A stretch of DNA of 19,981 nucleotides from a virus (taxonomy: Duplodnaviria; Heunggongvirae; Uroviricota; Caudoviricetes), in the IMG/VR virus record IMGVR_UViG_2671180422_000005; one strand, 5' to 3'. The position numbers were made by a program, and so were the translations under genes. The notes below the pieces were generated by a model that was given only the letters and a program-made list of their open reading frames with translations, was not told the DNA's origin and searched no databases. Positions 2,621 through 19,981 of the stretch are shown here, one piece after another; within the stretch, counting starts at the first letter, position 1; the number at the start of each line of letters is the position of its first letter.

Positions 2621-3211
2621 ATGTCTCAAATTTTTGCTTACTGTCGGATATCAACGCTGGATCAGACCACCGAAAATCAACGCCGGGAAATCGAAAGTGC
2701 AGGTTTTAAAATCAAACCTCAGCAAATAATCGAAGAACACATTAGCGGCTCAGCAGCAACCAGTGAGCGTCCTGGTTTTAACCGGTTGCTTGCTCGCCTG
2801 AAATGTGGTGATCAATTGATTGTGACAAAACTGGATCGCCTTGGTTGTAATGCAATGGATATCAGGAAAACAGTGGAACAACTGACCGAAACAGGTATCA
2901 GAGTGCATTGCTTAGCATTGGGGGGCATTGACCTGACCAGTCCAACAGGAAAAATGATGATGCAAGTAATTTCAGCAGTCGCTGAATTTGAACGAGACCT
3001 TTTACTTGAACGCACTCATTCCGGGATAGTAAGAGCCCGCGGCGCAGGGAAACGTTTTGGTCGACCACCTGTGTTAAATGAAGAACAGAAACAGGCGGTA
3101 TTCGAACGAATTAAGTCAGGTGTAAGTATAAGTGCCATTGCCCGGGAATTCAAAACCTCGCGGCAAACCATTTTAAGAGCCAAAGCAAAACTTCAGACAC
3201 CTGACATATAA
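2621..3211 (+). CDS. pinQ: Serine recombinase, DNA invertase of the Pin/Gin/Hin/Cin family
   Basis: 196 aa; N-terminal catalytic motif YCRISTLDQ (active-site Ser10), C-terminal HTH ([18 protein letters not shown]); sequence as recalled for PinQ/PinR. Confidence 0.9.
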
Positions 3212-3308: not shown

Positions 3309-3444
3309 CTACGGCAGTGCTGGCCATTCAATATCCTGTGCAGTTGACGTATCAACACGGTTCAGCAATACCCGATACTTTTTCCATGCTTCCAGCAACG
3401 AGATTTCTTCCTCCGTTGCAATTTCCAGATCTGCAGCATCCTGA
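3309..3444 (-). pseudogene. 3' remnant (about 45 codons) of a tail fiber assembly gene tfa, fused to gene A
   Basis: Minus-strand frame reads ...[43 protein letters not shown]-stop, the conserved C-terminus of lambdoid Tfa proteins; no upstream Tfa sequence remains. Confidence 0.55.
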
Positions 3445-5337
3445 ATCTGCCAGTGTTTTCTTGTTGGTTGCTGCACCATCCTCTTCCTGCAGGCTCGCCA
3501 GCAGTGCACTGAGATCCAGCTGCCAGCGGGAAATACTGATGCGCAGCGCCGCCAGCGCATAAACGAAGCAGTCGAGTGCCTCATTGCGTCGCTTTTTGCT
3601 GTCCCACAGTATTTTTTTCCTGCCATCCACCCATTTTTCGACCTGCTCTTCAGCAGTCAGCTGCTGCGCTTCGGTCAGATCAAAAATATCCGGGTTATTC
3701 GGGAAGTGAACGGCACCGGGAAGCGGTTCATCCCCTTCCGGCGTCAGTGTGAAGCGGTTATAAATCTGCTCTTTCGCGGTATCCGTACCGATTTCGGTAA
3801 GGTAAACCCCGTTTTTGTTTCGCTTACGTGGCATGCTGGCCACCGGCTTTCCGTAGACGGATGCCCCTTTAATGGGGATCACCCGGAACAGCCCATGTTT
3901 TTTCGAGCGTTCATACACAATGGTCGGGTCAATCCCGCCAGTATCCCAGCAGATACGGGATACCGACATTTCTGCACCATTCCGGCGGGTATAGGTTTTA
4001 TTGATGGCCTCATCCACACGCAGCAGCGTCTGTTCATCGTCGTGGCGACCCATAATAATCTGCCGGTCAATCAGCCAGCTTTCCTCACCCGGCCCCCATC
4101 CCCATACGCGCATTTCGTAGCGGTCCAGCTGGGAGTCGATACCGGCGGTCAGGTAAGCCACACGGTCAGGAACGGGCGCTGAATAATGCTCTTTCCGCTC
4201 CGCCATCACCTCAGCATCCGGACGTTCGCCGATTTTCGCTTCCCATGTCTCACCGAGCGTGGTGTTTACGAAGGTTTTACGTTTTCCCGTATCCCCTTTC
4301 GTTTTCATCCAGTCTTTGACAATCTGCACCCAGGTGGTGAACGGGCTGTACGCCGTCCAGATGTGAAAGGTCACGCTGTCCGGCGGCTCAATCTCTTCAC
4401 CGGATGACGAAAACCAGAGAATGCCATCACGGGTCCAGATCCCGGTCTTTTCGCAGATATAACGGGCATCAGTGAAGTCCAGCTCCTGCTGGCGGATGAC
4501 GCAGGCATTATGCTCGCAGAGATAAAACACGCTGGAGGGGTCATCCGGCGTCCATTTGAGGCCAAACGGCGTCTCTTTGTCGCCAAATTTAAGATACTGC
4601 TCCTCCCCGCAGTGCGGGCAGGCAACATGAAAACGCATAAAATGCAGGGATTCACTGGCTGCACGCTCAATCTGGCAGGTGCCTCTCACTTTGGGCGTGG
4701 AGCCACGGATGGACTTTGGCCAGACCGAGCCTTCAATACGTTTGTCGCCAAGGAACGTCGGAGAGCCTTCCTGTTCAATATCCTCATCAAAGGCAGCAAG
4801 TTCATCATAACCCGCCACATCCACCGACTTTTCACGGTAGTTTTTTGCCGCTTTACCGCCCAGGCACCAGAAGCCACGACCATTGGAAAAACGCTTCATA
4901 GTGAGCGTGTTATCCCGGTGCTTTTTGCCATACCACGGAGCCAGCGCCAGCAGCGACGGAATATCGCGGATGGTCGGCTCAACGTGGGTTTTCATAAAGT
5001 TCTCGGCATCACCATCCGTCGGCAACCAGATAAGGGTGTTGCGCTGCTTATGCTCTATAAAGTAGGCATAAACACCCAGCAGCATTTTGGAATAACCGAC
5101 ACGGGCAGACTTCACCACATTCACCTCACGGATGTAGTCGCTGCCCATCGCATTCATGATGGCCCGCTGAAAGGGCAGTGTTTCCCAGCGCCCTTCCTGG
5201 TATGCGGATTCTTTCGGGAGATAGTAATTAGCATCCGCCCATTCAACGGCGGTCTGTGGCTCCGGCCTGAACAGTGAGCGAAGCCCGGCGCGGACAAAAT
5301 GCCGCAGCCTGTTAACCTGACTGTTCGATATATTCAC
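3352..5337 (-). CDS. A: Terminase large subunit gpA-like, 661 aa, with the last about 10 lambda residues replaced by 30 unrelated residues
   Basis: Collinear with lambda gpA from [19 protein letters not shown] through ...[11 protein letters not shown]; diverges after coordinate 3445 into ...[30 protein letters not shown], which is tfa-derived DNA read in another frame. Confidence 0.9.
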
Positions 5338-5857
5338 TCAGCAACCCCGGTATCAGTTCATCCAGCGCGGCTGCTTTGTTCATGGCTTTGATGATATCCC
5401 GTTTCAGGAAATCAACATGTCGGTTTTCCAGTTCCGGAAAACGCCGCTGCACCGACAGGGGGATCCCGTCGAGAATACTGGCAATTTCACCTGCGATCCG
5501 CGACAGCACGAAAGTACAGAATGCGGTTTCCACCACTTCAGCGGAGTCTCTGGCATTTTTCAGCTCCTGTGCGTCGGCCTGCGCACGCGTAAGTCGATGG
5601 CGTTCGTACTCAATAGTCCCTGGCTGGAGATCTGTCTCGCTGGCCTGCCGCAGTTCTTCAACTTCCCGGCGCAGCTTTTCGTTCTCAATTTCAGCATCCC
5701 TTTCGGCATACCATCTTATAACGGCGGCAGAGTCATAAAGCACCTCATTACCCTTGCCACCGCCTCGCAGAACGGGCATTCCCTGTTCCTGCCAGTTCTG
5801 AATGGTACGGATACTCGCACCGAAAATGTCAGCCAGCTGCTTTTTGTTGACTTCCAT
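5312..5857 (-). CDS. nu1: Terminase small subunit Nu1 (181 aa)
   Basis: MEVNKKQLADIFGASIRTIQNWQEQGMPV... matches lambda Nu1 as recalled; 3' end overlaps the A start as in lambda; ATG at 5855-5857. Confidence 0.9.
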   Translation of the reverse strand: MEVNKKQLADIFGASIRTIQNWQEQGMPVLRGGGKGNEVLYDSAAVIRWYAERDAEIENEKLRREVEELRQASETDLQPGTIEYERHRLTRAQADAQELKNARDSAEVVETAFCTFVLSRIAGEIASILDGIPLSVQRRFPELENRHVDFLKRDIIKAMNKAAALDELIPGLLSEYIEQSG

Positions 5858-8520: not shown

Positions 8521-9544
<1,024 letters not shown>

Positions 9545-12745: not shown

Positions 12746-13486
12746 TTACGCCAGTACGCCAATTGTCAGCGCGCGATCGATAAAACGAAATATCAGCTCC
12801 AGTTGGGAGCCATACTTATCTTCAAATGCCACTGTATCCGTATGCAGCTCGTTGTGATGCTTTCTGCACAAAGGCAACACAAAGAGATCATGTGCTTTTG
12901 TTCCCATTCCGCCCTGCCCGTGACCAATCAGATGATGCGGATCGTCGGCTGGCATACCGCAGCAAGCACACGGCTGTGTCTTAACCCAACGTGTGTATTT
13001 CTCCTTAACCCAGCGGCGACGTTTAGGCAGCTTCATGAAAGATTCCGGAGACTCTGGATCAACGGTGATGCTTACCACCGTCTTTTCCTGTGGTGATTTT
13101 TGTTGCTGGTGGGCGTAAGGCAACGGTGCAAGATTTTTTGTGCGTTGTTTCAATATGCTGGTGGCGGTCTGCTCTCCCGGTACGATGTCGCTTTCGCGGT
13201 ACACCGAGCAGATTTTTTCCGCTGGTAATCCCAGCGAACGACGCGATACAGCCTCAGGTAGTGCATCCACCACCTGATTGCAGACCGCCCACCAGGATAA
13301 TTCAGCCAAAGATAATTCCCGCTCCTGCGTACCGCTTATTGCGTGACGGATGACGTCAATCACCCATGCTGTCAGATTTTGTTGAGCAAGCAGCTCCAGT
13401 GATTCCGATGTCTGGTCACGCAGTTGGTTGTCGCAGTGCCAGCACAACACCATTGCGCCGGTATTCATCATAAACTTTGGGATCAT
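12746..13486 (-). CDS. ydfU: DUF968-family protein with HNH-like Cys/His motif
   Basis: 246-aa ORF; C-terminal CACCG...DPHHLIGHG...LPLCRKHHNELH; ATG at 13486 has GGGGAG upstream but lies 71 nt inside dicC; shorter than the K-12 YdfU length I recall. Confidence 0.75.
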   Translation of the reverse strand: MIPKFMMNTGAMVLCWHCDNQLRDQTSESLELLAQQNLTAWVIDVIRHAISGTQERELSLAELSWWAVCNQVVDALPEAVSRRSLGLPAEKICSVYRESDIVPGEQTATSILKQRTKNLAPLPYAHQQQKSPQEKTVVSITVDPESPESFMKLPKRRRWVKEKYTRWVKTQPCACCGMPADDPHHLIGHGQGGMGTKAHDLFVLPLCRKHHNELHTDTVAFEDKYGSQLELIFRFIDRALTIGVLA

Positions 13487-15174: not shown

Positions 15175-15232
15175 TTTCTGGTGACGTTTGGCGGTATCAG
15201 TTTTACTCCGTGACTGCTCTGCCGCCCTTTTT
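15175..15232 (+). ncRNA. dicF: DicF small RNA (Hfq-dependent inhibitor of ftsZ translation), processed from the dicB-operon transcript
   Basis: TTTCTGGTGACGTTTGGCGGTATCAGTTTTACTCCGTGACTGCTCTGCCGCCCTTTTT matches the DicF sequence as recalled; ends in a GGCGG/CCGCC stem plus U5 terminator; mature 5' end is uncertain by a few nt. Confidence 0.8.
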
Positions 15233-15401: not shown

Positions 15402-15590
15402 ATGAAAACGTTATTACCAAACGTTAATACGTCTGAAGGTTGTTTTGAAATTGGTGTCACTATCAGTAACCCAGTATTTACTGAAGATGCCATTAACAAG
15501 AGAAAACAAGAACGGGAGCTATTAAATAAAATATGCATTGTTTCAATGCTGGCTCGTTTACGTCTGATGCCAAAAGGATGTGCACAATGA
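15402..15590 (+). CDS. dicB: Cell-division inhibitor DicB (kil-type), 62 aa
   Basis: MKTLLPNVNTSEGCFEIGVTISNPVFTEDAINKRKQERELLNKICIVSMLARLRLMPKGCAQ; GAGGA Shine-Dalgarno. Confidence 0.95.
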   Translation: MKTLLPNVNTSEGCFEIGVTISNPVFTEDAINKRKQERELLNKICIVSMLARLRLMPKGCAQ

Positions 15591-15778
15591 ATTCAGCATT
15601 TGTGCTTGTTCTGACAGTTTTTCTTGTTTCCGGAGAGCCAGTTGATATTGCAGTCAGTGTTCACAGGACAATGCAGGAGTGTATGACTGCAGCAACCGAA
15701 CAGAAAATTCCCGGTAACTGTTACCCGGTCGATAAAGTTATTCACCAGGATAATATCGAAATCCCGGCAGGTCTTTAA
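15587..15778 (+). CDS. ydfD: YdfD small membrane protein, 63 aa
   Basis: ATG overlaps the dicB stop (ATGA); MNSAFVLVLTVFLVSGEPVDIAVSVHRTMQECM... with N-terminal TM segment. Confidence 0.9.
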   Translation: MNSAFVLVLTVFLVSGEPVDIAVSVHRTMQECMTAATEQKIPGNCYPVDKVIHQDNIEIPAGL

Positions 15779-15870
15779 AACAGTTCCGTAATAAATATCC
15801 GGTTTCATTCTTATATGCCAGCAATGGCAGGGATTTGTTCATCCTTAAATCTGTCATGAGGTTAAAACAA

Positions 15871-18342
15871 ATGAGTAAAGTCTTTATTTGCGCCGCTATT
15901 TCTGACGAACTGGCAACAAGGGAAGAAGGCGCTGTGGCTGTAGCCACAGCCATTGAAGCTGGCGACGAACGCCGTGCTCGAGCAAAATTTCACTGGCAAT
16001 TCCTGGAACATTATCCGGCTGCTCAGGACTGCGCTTATAAATTTATTGTCTGCGAGGATAAACCTGGCATACCCCGCCCTGCCCTCGATTCATGGGATGC
16101 TGAATATATGCAGGAAAACCGCTGGGATGAGGAGTCTGCTTCTTTTGTCCCGGTTGAGACTGAATCCGATCCGATGAACGTCACTTTTGACAAGCTGGCC
16201 CCTGAAGTACAGAACGCTGTCATGGTTAAGTTCGACACATGTGAAAACATCACCGTTGATATGGTTATTAGCGCACAGGAATTGTTGCAGGAAGACATGG
16301 CAACATTCGACGGACATATCGTTGAAGCGTTGATGAAAATGCCAGAAGTTAACGCCATGTATCCGGAGCTTAAGTTGCACGCCATTGGGTGGGTTAAGCA
16401 TAAATGTATTCCTGGTGCTAAATGGCCCGAAATTCAGGCAGAGATGCGCATCTGGAAAAAACGTCGCGAAGGTGAACGCAAGGAAACCGGAAAATACACG
16501 TCTGTTGTTGATCTCGCCCGCGCCAGAGCCAATCAACAGTACACTGAAAATTCAACAGGAAAAATCAGCCCGGTCATTGCTGCCATTCATCGCGAATACA
16601 AGCAGACATGGAAAACACTGGATGACGAACTGGCCTACGCTCTCTGGCCTAGTGATGTGGATGCCGGAAACATTGACGGCAGCATCCATCGCTGGGCAAA
16701 AAAAGAAGTTATCGACAACGACCGCGAAGACTGGAAGCGTATCTCGGCATCAATGCGCAAACAGCCTGATGCCCTTCGCTACGACCGCCAAACTATTTTT
16801 GGCCTTGTCCGTGAGCGTCCGATCGACATTCACAAAGATCCCGTAGCACTGAACAAATATATCTGCGAATACCTGACGACAAAGGGCGTGTTTGAGAATG
16901 AAGAAACAGACCTGGGCACTGTTGATGTTCTCCAGTCATCAGAAACACAAACTGATGCAGTGGAAACTGAGGTATCTGATATCCCAAAAAATGAAACCGC
17001 GCCGGAAGCTGAACCATCTGTAGAGCGTGAGGGGCCGTTCTATTTCCTCTTCGCAGATAAGGACGGAGAAAAATACGGTCGCGCAAACAAACTCTCTGGT
17101 CTGGATAAGGCACTGGCTGCTGGCGCCACTGAAATCACAAAAGAAGAATATTTTGCCCGAAAAAATGGCACATACACGGGCTTACCGCAAAATGTAGATA
17201 CCGCTGAAGATTCAGAACAACCAGAGCCGATAAAAGTTACCGCTGACGAAGTAAACAAAATTATGCAGGCAGCCAATATCAGCCAGCCTGACGCCGATAA
17301 GTTGCTTGCTGCATCACGTGGTGAATTTGTTGAAGGGATTAGTGACCCGAATGATCCGAAATGGGTTAAGGGGCTCCAGACCCGCGATTCTGTGAACCAG
17401 AACCAGCATGAATCGGAACGGAACTACCAAAAAGCGGAACAAAACAGTCCAAATGCGTTACAAAACGAGCCAGAAACGAAACAGCCTGAACCAGTAGCGC
17501 AACAGGAAGTGGAAAAAGTCTGCACCGCCTGCGGTCAGACCGGCGGCGGCAACTGCCCTGATTGTGGCGCGGTGATGGGCGACGCAACATACCAAGAAAC
17601 ATTCGATGAAGAGTATCAGGTTGAAGTTCAGGAAGATGATCCGGAGGAAATGGAAGGCGCTGAACATCCACACAAGGAGAACACTGGCGGCAATCAGCAT
17701 CACAATAGCGATAATGAAACTGGCGAGACGGCAGATCACCCAATTAAGGTGAACGGTCATCACGAAATCACATCCACCAGCAGGACGTGTGACCATCTAA
17801 TGATCGACCTTGAAACCATGGGAAAAAATCCTGATGCCCCGATCATCTCAATAGGTGCAATATTTTTCGATCCGCAAACCGGAGATATGGGACCGGAATT
17901 TAGTAAGACTATCGATCTGGAAACTGCTGGCGGAGTCATTGATCGGGACACCATTAAATGGTGGCTTAAGCAATCACGCGAAGCGCAATCTGCCATTATG
18001 ACCGATGAAATCCCGTTAGATGATGCACTGTTACAATTGCGAGAATTTATCGACGAAAACTCCGGTGAATTTTTTGTTCAGGTTTGGGGAAATGGAGCCA
18101 ACTTCGACAACACGATTTTGCGCCGTTCATACGAACGGCAGGGGATCCCCTGCCCGTGGCGTTACTACAACGATCGCGATGTACGCACAATCGTTGAGCT
18201 GGGGAAAGCCATAGACTTCGATGCCAGAACGGCTATTCCATTCGAAGGTGAGCGCCATAATGCACTTGATGACGCCCGTTACCAGGCAAAATACGTTTCA
18301 GTTATCTGGCAAAAACTGATCCCGAGTCAGGCTGATTCTTAA
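15871..18342 (+). CDS. ydfE: Large RecE-like (YdfE-family) protein with central CxxC...CxxC zinc ribbon and C-terminal DEDDh (DnaQ-like) 3'-5' exonuclease domain, 823 aa
   Basis: ATG at 15871 with GAGG upstream; exonuclease motifs MIDLETMG (Exo I), NGANFDNTIL (Exo II), HNALDDARYQAKY (Exo III); zinc ribbon CTACGQTGGGNCPDCG; acidic low-complexity linker; N-terminus matches YdfE as recalled. Confidence 0.8.
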   Translation: MSKVFICAAISDELATREEGAVAVATAIEAGDERRARAKFHWQFLEHYPAAQDCAYKFIVCEDKPGIPRPALDSWDAEYMQENRWDEESASFVPVETESDPMNVTFDKLAPEVQNAVMVKFDTCENITVDMVISAQELLQEDMATFDGHIVEALMKMPEVNAMYPELKLHAIGWVKHKCIPGAKWPEIQAEMRIWKKRREGERKETGKYTSVVDLARARANQQYTENSTGKISPVIAAIHREYKQTWKTLDDELAYALWPSDVDAGNIDGSIHRWAKKEVIDNDREDWKRISASMRKQPDALRYDRQTIFGLVRERPIDIHKDPVALNKYICEYLTTKGVFENEETDLGTVDVLQSSETQTDAVETEVSDIPKNETAPEAEPSVEREGPFYFLFADKDGEKYGRANKLSGLDKALAAGATEITKEEYFARKNGTYTGLPQNVDTAEDSEQPEPIKVTADEVNKIMQAANISQPDADKLLAASRGEFVEGISDPNDPKWVKGLQTRDSVNQNQHESERNYQKAEQNSPNALQNEPETKQPEPVAQQEVEKVCTACGQTGGGNCPDCGAVMGDATYQETFDEEYQVEVQEDDPEEMEGAEHPHKENTGGNQHHNSDNETGETADHPIKVNGHHEITSTSRTCDHLMIDLETMGKNPDAPIISIGAIFFDPQTGDMGPEFSKTIDLETAGGVIDRDTIKWWLKQSREAQSAIMTDEIPLDDALLQLREFIDENSGEFFVQVWGNGANFDNTILRRSYERQGIPCPWRYYNDRDVRTIVELGKAIDFDARTAIPFEGERHNALDDARYQAKYVSVIWQKLIPSQADS

Positions 18343-18414
18343 TGTTCAACTGTCGCCGGTTGTGACTGGTATTCTGCAACCGGCGCTCGTCTGATGTAAG
18401 AGATAAAGAAATCG

Positions 18415-18666
18415 ATGAGCGAAGTAATCATGATTGTCTCTCCCGGCAAATGGGTATCCGAAGAGCAGTTAATTGCGCTGAAAGGAATAAAAAAAGGTAC
18501 GTTAAAAAAGGCCCGGGAAAAATCGTTTATGGAAGGAAGGGAATATAAGCATGTCGCTCATGACGGTATGCCATGGGATAACAGTCCATGCTTTTACAAC
18601 CTGGAAGAAATTGATCGCTGGATTGAGCGCCAGGCATCAGCGAGACCAAGACGTCATCTTACTTGA
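18415..18666 (+). CDS. Excisionase-like protein
   Basis: 83-aa ORF immediately upstream of int on the same strand; start could be ATG 18415 or 18430. Confidence 0.65.
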   Translation: MSEVIMIVSPGKWVSEEQLIALKGIKKGTLKKAREKSFMEGREYKHVAHDGMPWDNSPCFYNLEEIDRWIERQASARPRRHLT

Positions 18667-18700
18667 CTAAAAGCCACACTAACTAATGAGAGAAGTTGAA

Positions 18701-19981
18701 ATGAAATATCCGACAGGCGTGGAAAACCATGGAGGGAAATTACGTATCTGGTTTGTTTATAAAGACGTAAGAGTCAGGGAAAATCTGGGGGTTCCTGACA
18801 CAGCAAAAAACAGGCGCGTTGCAGGTGAACTACGCTCCTCTGTTTGTTACGCAATAAAAACTGGTGTTTTCGACTATGCAAAACAGTTTCCCTCCTCACG
18901 CAATCTGGAAAAATTTGGTGAGGCCCGACAAGATTTAACCATAAAAGAACTGGCTGAAAAATTTCTGGCACTGAAAGAAACTGAAGTCGCCAAAACATCA
19001 CTCAACACATACCGTGCCGTCATCAAAAATATCCTGAGCATAATCGGTGAAAAAAATCTTGCCTCATCGATTAATAAAGAAAAATTACTGGAGGTTCGTA
19101 AAGAGTTACTGACTGGATACCAGATCCCCAAAAGTAACTATATTGTTACACAACCAGGGAGATCGGCTGTAACTGTAAATAATTACATGACAAATCTTAA
19201 CGCCGTGTTCCAGTTTGGTGTTGATAACGGTTACCTGGCAGATAATCCGTTTAAGGGGATCTCGCCATTAAAGGAATCAAGAACCATTCCGGATCCTCTT
19301 TCGCGGGAAGAATTTATCCGTCTTATCGATGCGTGCAGAAATCAGCAAGCAAAAAATTTATGGTGTGTTTCTGTTTATACTGGAGTTCGCCCTGGTGAGC
19401 TGTGTGCACTTGGATGGGAGGACATAGATCTGAAAAATGGAACAATGATGATCAGGAGAAATTTAGCAAAAGACCGTTTCACGGTACCAAAAACACAGGC
19501 GGGAACCAATCGGGTCATTCATCTTATTAAGCCAGCAATCGACGCTCTCCGGAGTCAGATGACATTAACGAGACTGAGCAAAGAGCATATCATTGATGTT
19601 CACCTCAGAGAGTATGGCAGAACAGAAAAACAAAAATGCACCTTTGTTTTTCAACCTGAAGTGTCAGCGAGAGTAAAAAATTATGGTGACCATTTTACCG
19701 TTGACTCAATAAGGCAGATGTGGGACGCAGCGATAAAACGTGCCGGACTCCGCCATCGAAAATCATATCAGTCGAGACATACTTATGCCTGCTGGTCGCT
19801 GACAGCTGGTGCTAACCCGGCATTTATAGCAAACCAGATGGGCCATGCAGATGCGCAAATGGTATTTCAGGTATACGGAAAATGGATGTCTGAAAACAAT
19901 AATGCACAGGTAGCTTTGTTAAATACACAGTTAAGCGAGTTTGCCCCAACCATGCCCCATAACGAAGCAATGAAAAATTAA
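18701..19981 (+). CDS. intQ: Tyrosine recombinase, phage integrase (426 aa from ATG 18701), apparently full length
   Basis: N-terminal MKYPTGVENHGGKLRIWF, the type recalled for Rac IntR; box I TGVRPGELCALGWEDIDL, box II SRHTYACWSLTAGANPAFIANQMGHADAQMVFQVYGKW with the presumed catalytic Tyr; stop TAA at 19979-19981. Confidence 0.9.
   Translation: MKYPTGVENHGGKLRIWFVYKDVRVRENLGVPDTAKNRRVAGELRSSVCYAIKTGVFDYAKQFPSSRNLEKFGEARQDLTIKELAEKFLALKETEVAKTSLNTYRAVIKNILSIIGEKNLASSINKEKLLEVRKELLTGYQIPKSNYIVTQPGRSAVTVNNYMTNLNAVFQFGVDNGYLADNPFKGISPLKESRTIPDPLSREEFIRLIDACRNQQAKNLWCVSVYTGVRPGELCALGWEDIDLKNGTMMIRRNLAKDRFTVPKTQAGTNRVIHLIKPAIDALRSQMTLTRLSKEHIIDVHLREYGRTEKQKCTFVFQPEVSARVKNYGDHFTVDSIRQMWDAAIKRAGLRHRKSYQSRHTYACWSLTAGANPAFIANQMGHADAQMVFQVYGKWMSENNNAQVALLNTQLSEFAPTMPHNEAMKN

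Follow-up and report, generated by a model that had tools for sequence, protein, structure and literature searches.

The 19,981-nucleotide stretch of DNA analysed here (IMG/VR record IMGVR_UViG_2671180422_000005; hereafter, the window) corresponds to the Qin prophage, and its + strand carries an intact orthologue of ydfE (15871-18342, stop codon included) encoding a protein of 823 amino acids. Judging from its sequence, this product of the early-left operon is almost certainly an active 3'-5' exonuclease. It is built on a scaffold shared with the Rac prophage protein RecE, on which the PD-(D/E)XK nuclease of RecE (5'-3') has been replaced by a DEDDh nuclease of the opposite polarity, and the annealing protein RecT is missing next to it. 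We would give an even chance to the interpretation that the DEDDh protein trims 3' ends in a phage strategy that is independent of RecT and depends on RecBCD and RecA of the host. It should be noted that the gene itself is not new, being common, already annotated and already classified in the literature. The present analysis adds the mapped junction at which the nuclease was swapped, and the measured co-variation of RecT with the type of nuclease.

The C-terminal domain of the protein (residues 642-813; 17794-18309, +) matched the Pfam family PF16473 (Rv2179c-like) over profile positions 2-177 of 177, with an E-value of 2.4e-67 and a score of 226.5 bits, the curated cut-off being 27 bits. Its nearest solved structure is that of T4 DexA (PDB 8KEL, E 1.5e-6), and the domain is assigned to the Rv2179c-like/T4 DexA family of DEDDh 3'-5' exonucleases. 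Both T4 DexA and its E. coli homologue EcD have been characterized experimentally as 3'-5' DNA exonucleases (PMC12153337). The Exo I motif D646-L-E648 (17806-17814, +), the Exo II aspartate D746 (18106-18108, +; within F745-D746-NTI-L750) and the Exo III motif H796-NALD-D801 (18256-18273, +) were all located, and D646, E648, D746, H796 and D801 line up with D7, E9, D119, H186 and D191 of DexA. The catalytic motifs do not vary in the stand-alone phage homologues, and strict patterns for all three are matched by 148 of the 168 unique full-length relatives.

Ahead of the nuclease stands a zinc ribbon, CTACGQTGGGNCPDC (C551-x2-C554-x7-C562-x2-C565; 17521-17565, +), followed by an acidic linker (residues 576-640; 17596-17790, +) with 18 acidic and 3 basic residues, which ends at the nuclease swap point. 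The zinc-ribbon motif is present in 165 of the 168 unique DEDDh-fused relatives and in Rac RecE, and was not found in the other 20 long open reading frames (ORFs; at least 800 codons) of the sampled loci with a PD-(D/E)XK (PDDEXK) nuclease. It is therefore specific to the Rac/Qin lineage of E. coli rather than a feature of the scaffold as a whole. An earlier note on this DNA had described much of this arrangement, namely DnaQ-type motifs (DxE, FDxxxL, HxALDD) in the C-terminal part, preceded by a zinc ribbon and a long acidic linker, and each of these elements was recovered. The note had named a loss of catalytic residues on careful alignment as one finding that would speak against a nuclease; in the alignment with DexA, all five are kept.

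The remainder of the protein resembles RecE only in part. Residues 262-627 are homologous to residues 278-592 of Rac RecE (BLASTP, E 2e-61), that is, to its central part only. K-12 Rac RecE has PF06630 at its N-terminus and the PDDEXK-like PF12684 at residues 615-850, with no DEDDh domain, while a Pfam scan of the 823-residue protein matched neither PF06630 nor PF12684. Likewise, the NCBIfam equivalog model for exonuclease VIII, NF007259, fell short of its cut-off (281.6 bits versus 1269), the match being limited to residues 246-623 and to profile positions 271-600 of 877. The earlier note had assigned a PD-(D/E)xK nuclease to Rac RecE and had considered the architecture of the Qin protein to be distinct from it; both statements are borne out. 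The names "exodeoxyribonuclease VIII" and "ds DNA exonuclease" are wrong labels for the 823-residue protein.

The point of exchange can be read from the DNA. A mosaic block (17293-17744, +) is about 90% identical to Rac recE and sharply bounded at either end, and the conserved segment and the zinc ribbon are encoded within it. Over residues 470-625, the identity to the RecE protein was estimated from the BLASTP alignment at about 85%. The homology to RecE stops at residue 627, where the PD-(D/E)XK nuclease of RecE starts, and the stand-alone DEDDh homologues begin at the position of residue 641. The nuclease has therefore been exchanged at a mosaic junction on a shared scaffold, the swap point being the 3' edge of the block with about 90% identity to recE.

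Two further observations concern this region. The window contains four Chi sites (GCTGGTGG), compared with 0.48 expected by chance, at 9123-9130 (-), 13105-13112 (+), 13157-13164 (+) and 17774-17781 (-), and the last of these lies inside the gene at the swap junction, after the RecE-like block and before the exonuclease domain. In the allele of phage Evi (L009:7909-8478), the exonuclease domain has a synonymous divergence (dS) of 1.12, versus about 0.2-0.5 in the remaining gene, and this divergence restricted to one domain indicates that, within the DEDDh type, the nuclease module was exchanged once more and independently.

In nature, N-terminal modules and nucleases are found in most of the possible pairings. 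The Qin-type N-terminus, joined in the window to a DEDDh nuclease, is joined to a PDDEXK nuclease in P0128, L014 and L015, and in several relatives is followed by no recognized C-terminal domain. Conversely, the RecE-type N-terminus, joined to PDDEXK in Rac RecE, is found with DEDDh in P0137, P0122 and phage vB_EcoS-640R1. There are also short variants (P0001, 527 residues; P0041, 392 residues) in which the N-terminal module runs straight into the exonuclease domain, with little left of the middle region.

This natural shuffling shows with which part of the protein RecT is associated. Within the window, tblastn found no relative of RecT, Bet, Erf, Rad52-type proteins, Sak4 or SSB, and the gene that follows is an excisionase gene, in agreement with the earlier note, which had reported no adjacent RecT/Bet-like gene. 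The genomes of the phages Tritos and mEp460_ev081 keep the same order, dicB-ydfD-exonuclease-xis-int, again without an annealing protein, so that the absence of RecT is not a result of decay in a cryptic prophage. The survey was based on 230 IMG/VR loci with 229 DEDDh-bearing genes (181 unique proteins), and annealing proteins were sought by phmmer and BLASTP with seven queries (three divergent versions of RecT, Bet, Erf, a Rad52-type protein and Sak4). Within 6 kb of the 229 genes, no gene for RecT, Bet, Erf, a Rad52-type protein or Sak4 was found, and relatives of Gam, Abc2, SSB and NinB were likewise missing. In contrast, 60 of the 61 scaffold proteins with a PDDEXK nuclease were followed by a RecT-family gene on the same strand, at most 300 bp downstream; the lone exception had less than 1 kb of downstream sequence. 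It is therefore the 5'-3' nuclease, and not the scaffold, that RecT accompanies: in the sampled loci RecT follows PD-(D/E)XK and never DEDDh, regardless of the N-terminal module.

Downstream of the proteins that combine a Qin-type N-terminus with PDDEXK, the RecT-family genes (L014:7841-8908 and L015:7876-9000) encode 355-374 residues, compared with 269 for Rac RecT, and their start is within a few bases of the nuclease stop codon or overlaps it.

Purifying selection acts on the exonuclease gene. The ratio of nonsynonymous to synonymous substitution rates (dN/dS) was 0.17-0.27 for the whole gene and 0.09-0.15 for residues 1-260. Compared with phage alleles that are 8-13% divergent in DNA, it was 0.09-0.10 for the N-terminal module and 0.15-0.20 for the exonuclease domain, so that selection is seen to act on both of these regions. 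The ratio rises to 0.56-0.66 in a second acidic linker (residues 351-395; 16921-17055, +; 11 acidic and 2 basic residues), which is probably disordered. Of 5426 complete E. coli genomes, 3536 contain at least 80% of the length of the gene, and the carriers have between them a median of 2 and a maximum of 10 copies; the gene is among the most widespread prophage genes of E. coli. Taken alone, the exonuclease domain occurs in 695 phage genomes of diverse kinds, frequently outside recombination modules.

Two parts can be distinguished in the scaffold upstream of that linker. The N-terminal module of the Qin type (residues 1-235; 15871-16575, +) has a profile that is unrelated to the RecE N-terminal domain PF06630 (hhalign probability 0.5%). 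A profile search of the PDB with the N-terminal alignment gave no match, and in particular none to a Rad52, RecT or Erf structure. Homologues of residues 1-320 are annotated with PF27430 and PF27432, two newer Pfam families, at approximate boundaries. The conserved central domain (residues 236-350; 16576-16920, +) is common, by alignment, to Rac RecE and other proteins with the RecE-family scaffold, and a stretch at about residues 237-345 recurs as the best match in many distant relatives. Residues 262-350 of this domain fall within the BLASTP alignment with RecE. The PDB profile search with the central-domain alignment hit nothing but designed proteins, on the basis of composition.

Beyond Escherichia and Shigella, the Qin-type scaffold is seldom encountered. 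A scan of a genome collection with a narrow alignment of the central domain found seven loci, of which six belong to Escherichia or Shigella and the seventh to a metagenome-assembled genome, and residues 1-470 are matched by 187 clusters at 50% identity among 1.84 billion representatives. A homologue search with residues 1-320 returned mostly partial E. coli sequences and no distant relatives suitable for modelling. The AlphaFold2 model of residues 1-470, built on a shallow alignment of 19 sequences at 63-89% identity, was poor, with a mean predicted local distance difference test (pLDDT) score of 51 and a predicted template modelling (pTM) score of 0.31. Moderate confidence was confined to residues 101-205 and 385-440, pLDDT dropped to 25-29 at residues 341-380, and a Foldseek comparison of the model with the PDB gave nothing at E <= 0.001.

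A biological context is provided by a recent classification of lambdoid recombination modules, which includes DnaQ-like 3'-5' nucleases (PMC12315714, Genome Res 2025). Tritos is described there as the prototype of a class with a nuclease, many Chi sites and no annealing protein, SSB or RecBCD inhibitor (PMC12315714). The locus in the window has the traits of such a module, i.e. a nuclease gene in the early-left position, no relative of an annealing protein or SSB in the window, and no Gam, Abc2 or SSB in the related loci. Stand-alone relatives of the exonuclease occur in recombination modules as well. In mEpX2 the order is Rad52-type gene, SSB, exonuclease, Abc2, and the relative in phage epsilon34 likewise lies inside a recombination module, as stated in the same paper (PMC12315714).

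According to the interpretation that we favour, the exonuclease would be made upon derepression of the prophage or during phage infection, and would remove 3' single-stranded tails from phage DNA or from broken DNA ends. The blunted ends would be good entry sites for RecBCD, which would then load RecA, and the RecE-like scaffold would probably deliver the nuclease to its substrate or to a partner from the host; in RecET-type single-strand annealing the DEDDh protein would take no part. This interpretation is suggested by the position in the operon, by the shared scaffold, by the strict loss of RecT when the nuclease is DEDDh, and by the mEpX2 relative being encoded between SSB and Abc2. It also suits the phage class, which is rich in Chi sites and has neither an annealing protein nor a RecBCD inhibitor. 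Exonuclease I (SbcB) and exonuclease X of the host are DnaQ-like 3'-5' DNases, and their trimming of 3' tails can favour the RecBCD pathway; since they act in this way, the phage enzyme may do likewise.

Several considerations weigh against this interpretation. The step from blunt ends to RecBCD is borrowed from the host exonucleases I and X, and an RNA substrate is conceivable because the Pfam family is named after an exoribonuclease. The co-variation with RecT rests on few independent events, because the DEDDh loci are close relatives that fall into 8 clusters at 90% identity and into 3 at 80%. Moreover, a sequence screen with seven proteins would overlook annealing proteins of other families, and the Pfam summary of 90 representative flanking ORFs covers the 25 most frequent of 112 families, leaving room for a rare annealing family. 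The scaffold gave no usable predicted model (mean pLDDT 51). Finally, DnaQ-like 3'-5' exonucleases usually inhibit recombination, a point also made in the lambdoid survey (PMC12315714).

The main rival explanation, itself unlikely in our opinion, is that the protein is a defence nuclease of the prophage which degrades the modified-base DNA of incoming phages (the 'HREX' idea, as for EcD). EcD, a stand-alone homologue of DexA whose exonuclease domain is of the same family, cuts T4 DNA containing 5-hydroxymethylcytosine (5hmC) while sparing unmodified DNA, and its expression from a plasmid protects cells from T4 (PMC12153337). A defensive function would also explain why an intact gene persists under purifying selection in the decayed prophages of most E. 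coli; at least 80% of the gene is found in 3536 of 5426 complete genomes. However, the dicB promoter, which transcribes dicB, ydfD, ydfE and intQ, is repressed by DicA in lysogens (bioRxiv 10.1101/2024.09.21.614188), and a search of the + strand immediately ahead of the exonuclease gene revealed no sigma-70-like promoter. The residues proposed to read 5hmC are not kept, W152 of DexA aligning with Y766 and D169 with A780, while D90, the tetramer-forming aspartate whose loss is said to give selectivity for 5hmC, is retained as D718; at 27% identity the pairing of residues is uncertain, and this comparison is only suggestive. In addition, the PADLOC match is weak (23.5 bits) and is to a generic Cas-associated DEDDh model, and a defence role would leave unexplained both the RecE-like scaffold of 640 residues and its position in the recombination slot.

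Less probable still is that the protein serves general nucleic-acid degradation, or is an anti-defence enzyme of the phage, with no role in recombination. It would then supply nucleotides from host DNA, as T4 DexA does, or eliminate RNA or DNA molecules on which host immunity depends. Its kinship with the exoribonuclease Rv2179c and with DexA, which takes part in the scavenging of host DNA (PMC12153337), is compatible with such a function. So is the occurrence of the domain in 695 phage genomes, often away from recombination modules, and the lambdoid survey mentions sporadic DnaQ-type genes adjoining int or cI (PMC12315714). On the other hand, the nuclease is fused to a RecE scaffold exactly where the recombination nuclease of RecE sits, and its closest stand-alone relative, that of mEpX2, is encoded between the SSB and Abc2 genes. 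Furthermore, no temperate lambdoid phage is known to degrade the host chromosome, which counts against this explanation. A role in anti-restriction was also considered, and no evidence of any kind was found for it.

It appears improbable that the protein works in RecET-like single-strand annealing, with the annealer supplied by another prophage (e.g. Rac) or by the N-terminal module itself. The scaffold is common to RecE, the N-terminal module is strongly conserved, and partners acting in trans are conceivable because the number of copies per carrier genome has a median of 2 and reaches 10. Yet a 3'-5' exonuclease destroys the very 3' tails that RecT-type proteins need, and RecT is absent beside every DEDDh version but present beside PD-(D/E)XK versions with the same type of N-terminus. 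As reported above, no structure of Rad52, RecT or Erf was retrieved from the PDB with the profile of the N-terminal module. Muyrers et al. reportedly observed in 2000 that RecT binds the C-terminal nuclease region of RecE, which is the region missing in the Qin protein.

Lastly, that the gene is a non-functional relic of a cryptic prophage is very improbable: Qin is defective, and the K-12 copy and at least one other (that of PPompW_EH1846, L010:6001-8468, which is frameshifted) are pseudogenes, but the gene is intact in the phage genomes of Tritos and mEp460_ev081, its overall dN/dS of 0.17-0.27 falls further in the two folded end domains, and all three motifs are matched by 148 of 168 relatives.

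As to the gene itself, the ORF spans 15835-18342 (+), and the ATG at 15871 gives the protein of 823 residues; a ribosome-binding site, GAGG (15858-15861, +), lies 9 bases 5' of this ATG. The same start is used by RefSeq in identical genomes, under the product name "exonuclease", and the protein is 100% identical to WP_061362252.1, found in several E. coli genomes. PHROG 2082 covers it end to end, and the NCBI cluster at 90% identity that holds the exact protein contains 23,183 sequences, which go under the names "exonuclease" or "3'-5' exoribonuclease domain-containing protein". Among the papers searched, none linked ydfE with an exonuclease. In K-12, ydfE is a pseudogene that matches residues 1-257 at 99% identity and ends at the start of an IS2E remnant. 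Accordingly, the earlier note was right in calling an intact gene of 823 codons at 15871-18342, in stating that IS2 cuts the K-12 gene so that the copy in the window is the complete one, and in placing xis directly downstream.

The gene order in the window is dicC, dicA, ydfA, ydfB, ydfC, DicF, dicB, ydfD, exonuclease gene, xis and int, and the host gene rspB lies just past the end of the window, beyond int. The small RNA DicF (15176-15227, +; Rfam RF00039, 76.7 bits) is encoded upstream in the same operon, and its presence confirms that the operon is of the dicB type. The genes dicB and ydfD (15402-15778, +) directly precede the exonuclease gene. The excisionase gene (18415-18666, +; PF06806, DUF1233, E 1.6e-31) begins 72 bases after the exonuclease stop codon, and is followed by an intact integrase gene, the orthologue of intQ (18686-19981, +). 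In the early-left (dicB) operon, the exonuclease gene is the final one ahead of xis and int. An inverted repeat of 8 bases, GCCGGTTG (18355-18362) and CAACCGGC (18377-18384), with a 14-base loop, lies 12 bases past its stop codon, in the gap before the excisionase gene; because it has no run of T, it is unlike an intrinsic terminator.

Elsewhere in the window, the prophage has kept a terminase large subunit of 661 residues with the gpA ATPase and nuclease domains (3352-5337, -) and the Nu1 small terminase subunit (5312-5857, -). These genes are adjoined by a Pin-type invertase gene (2621-3211) and a major facilitator superfamily (MFS) transporter gene (1-1284, -). No tail genes are present between the terminase, invertase and transporter genes and the host DNA, and therefore the prophage is defective; presumably, it has decayed differently from the K-12 copy. 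Two thermoregulator leaders of the cspA type (RF01766; 7919-8304, -, and 10814-11206, -) belong to the prophage cold-shock genes cspI and cspB.

The Qin protein and its relatives constitute a natural experiment, in which a RecE-like protein has exchanged its nuclease for one of opposite polarity and, with the old nuclease, has lost its annealing partner. The gene belongs to a class of lambdoid phages that seemingly relies on RecBCD of the host and not on a recombination system of its own. Since the scaffold is shared with RecE, a standard tool in recombineering, the Qin protein would also offer a route to the study of the N-terminal two thirds of RecE. The N-terminal part of RecE is described as having no known function, and full-length RecE as enhancing linear-linear recombination (PMC11611040). 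A broader idea, to which we attach only a small probability, is that the RecE-family scaffold is a general docking platform for nucleases of opposite polarity, the choice of nuclease setting the recombination strategy. If this were true, PD-(D/E)XK together with RecT would stand for self-sufficient annealing, and a partnerless DEDDh nuclease for reliance on host RecBCD and RecA. The DEDDh version might also serve the host as a weapon against other phages, and this would account for its having been kept by about two thirds of E. coli genomes.

Among known systems, T4 DexA and EcD are of the same DEDDh family, with all five catalytic residues aligned; DexA, however, is only 27% identical, and the Qin protein carries some 640 additional N-terminal residues. 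Exonuclease I (SbcB) and exonuclease X share superfamily and polarity with it, but are host enzymes without a RecE-like scaffold. The stand-alone lambdoid exonucleases mEpX2 gp32, mEp460 gp26 and PY54 gene 51 are 52-60% identical over the whole exonuclease domain; they differ in being free of the scaffold, with a length of about 180-190 residues, and the mEpX2 enzyme is accompanied by a Rad52-type annealing protein, SSB and Abc2.

Like the Qin protein, Rac RecE is a large multi-domain protein with a C-terminal nuclease, encoded in the early-left operon near xis and int. The two have in common a homologous centre, a CxxC-x7-CxxC zinc ribbon, an acidic tail and the DNA block of about 90% identity. 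In contrast, they differ in their nucleases, PD-(D/E)XK (5'-3') in RecE and DEDDh (3'-5') in the Qin protein, in their N-terminal modules, that of Qin being unrelated to PF06630, and in the RecT gene, which the Qin locus lacks. A close counterpart of the locus is that of Tritos, whose exonuclease gene is 98.9% identical in DNA and whose gene order, dicF-dicB-ydfD-exonuclease-xis-int, is the same; while the copy in the window resides in a defective Qin prophage, that of Tritos is part of a complete phage genome.

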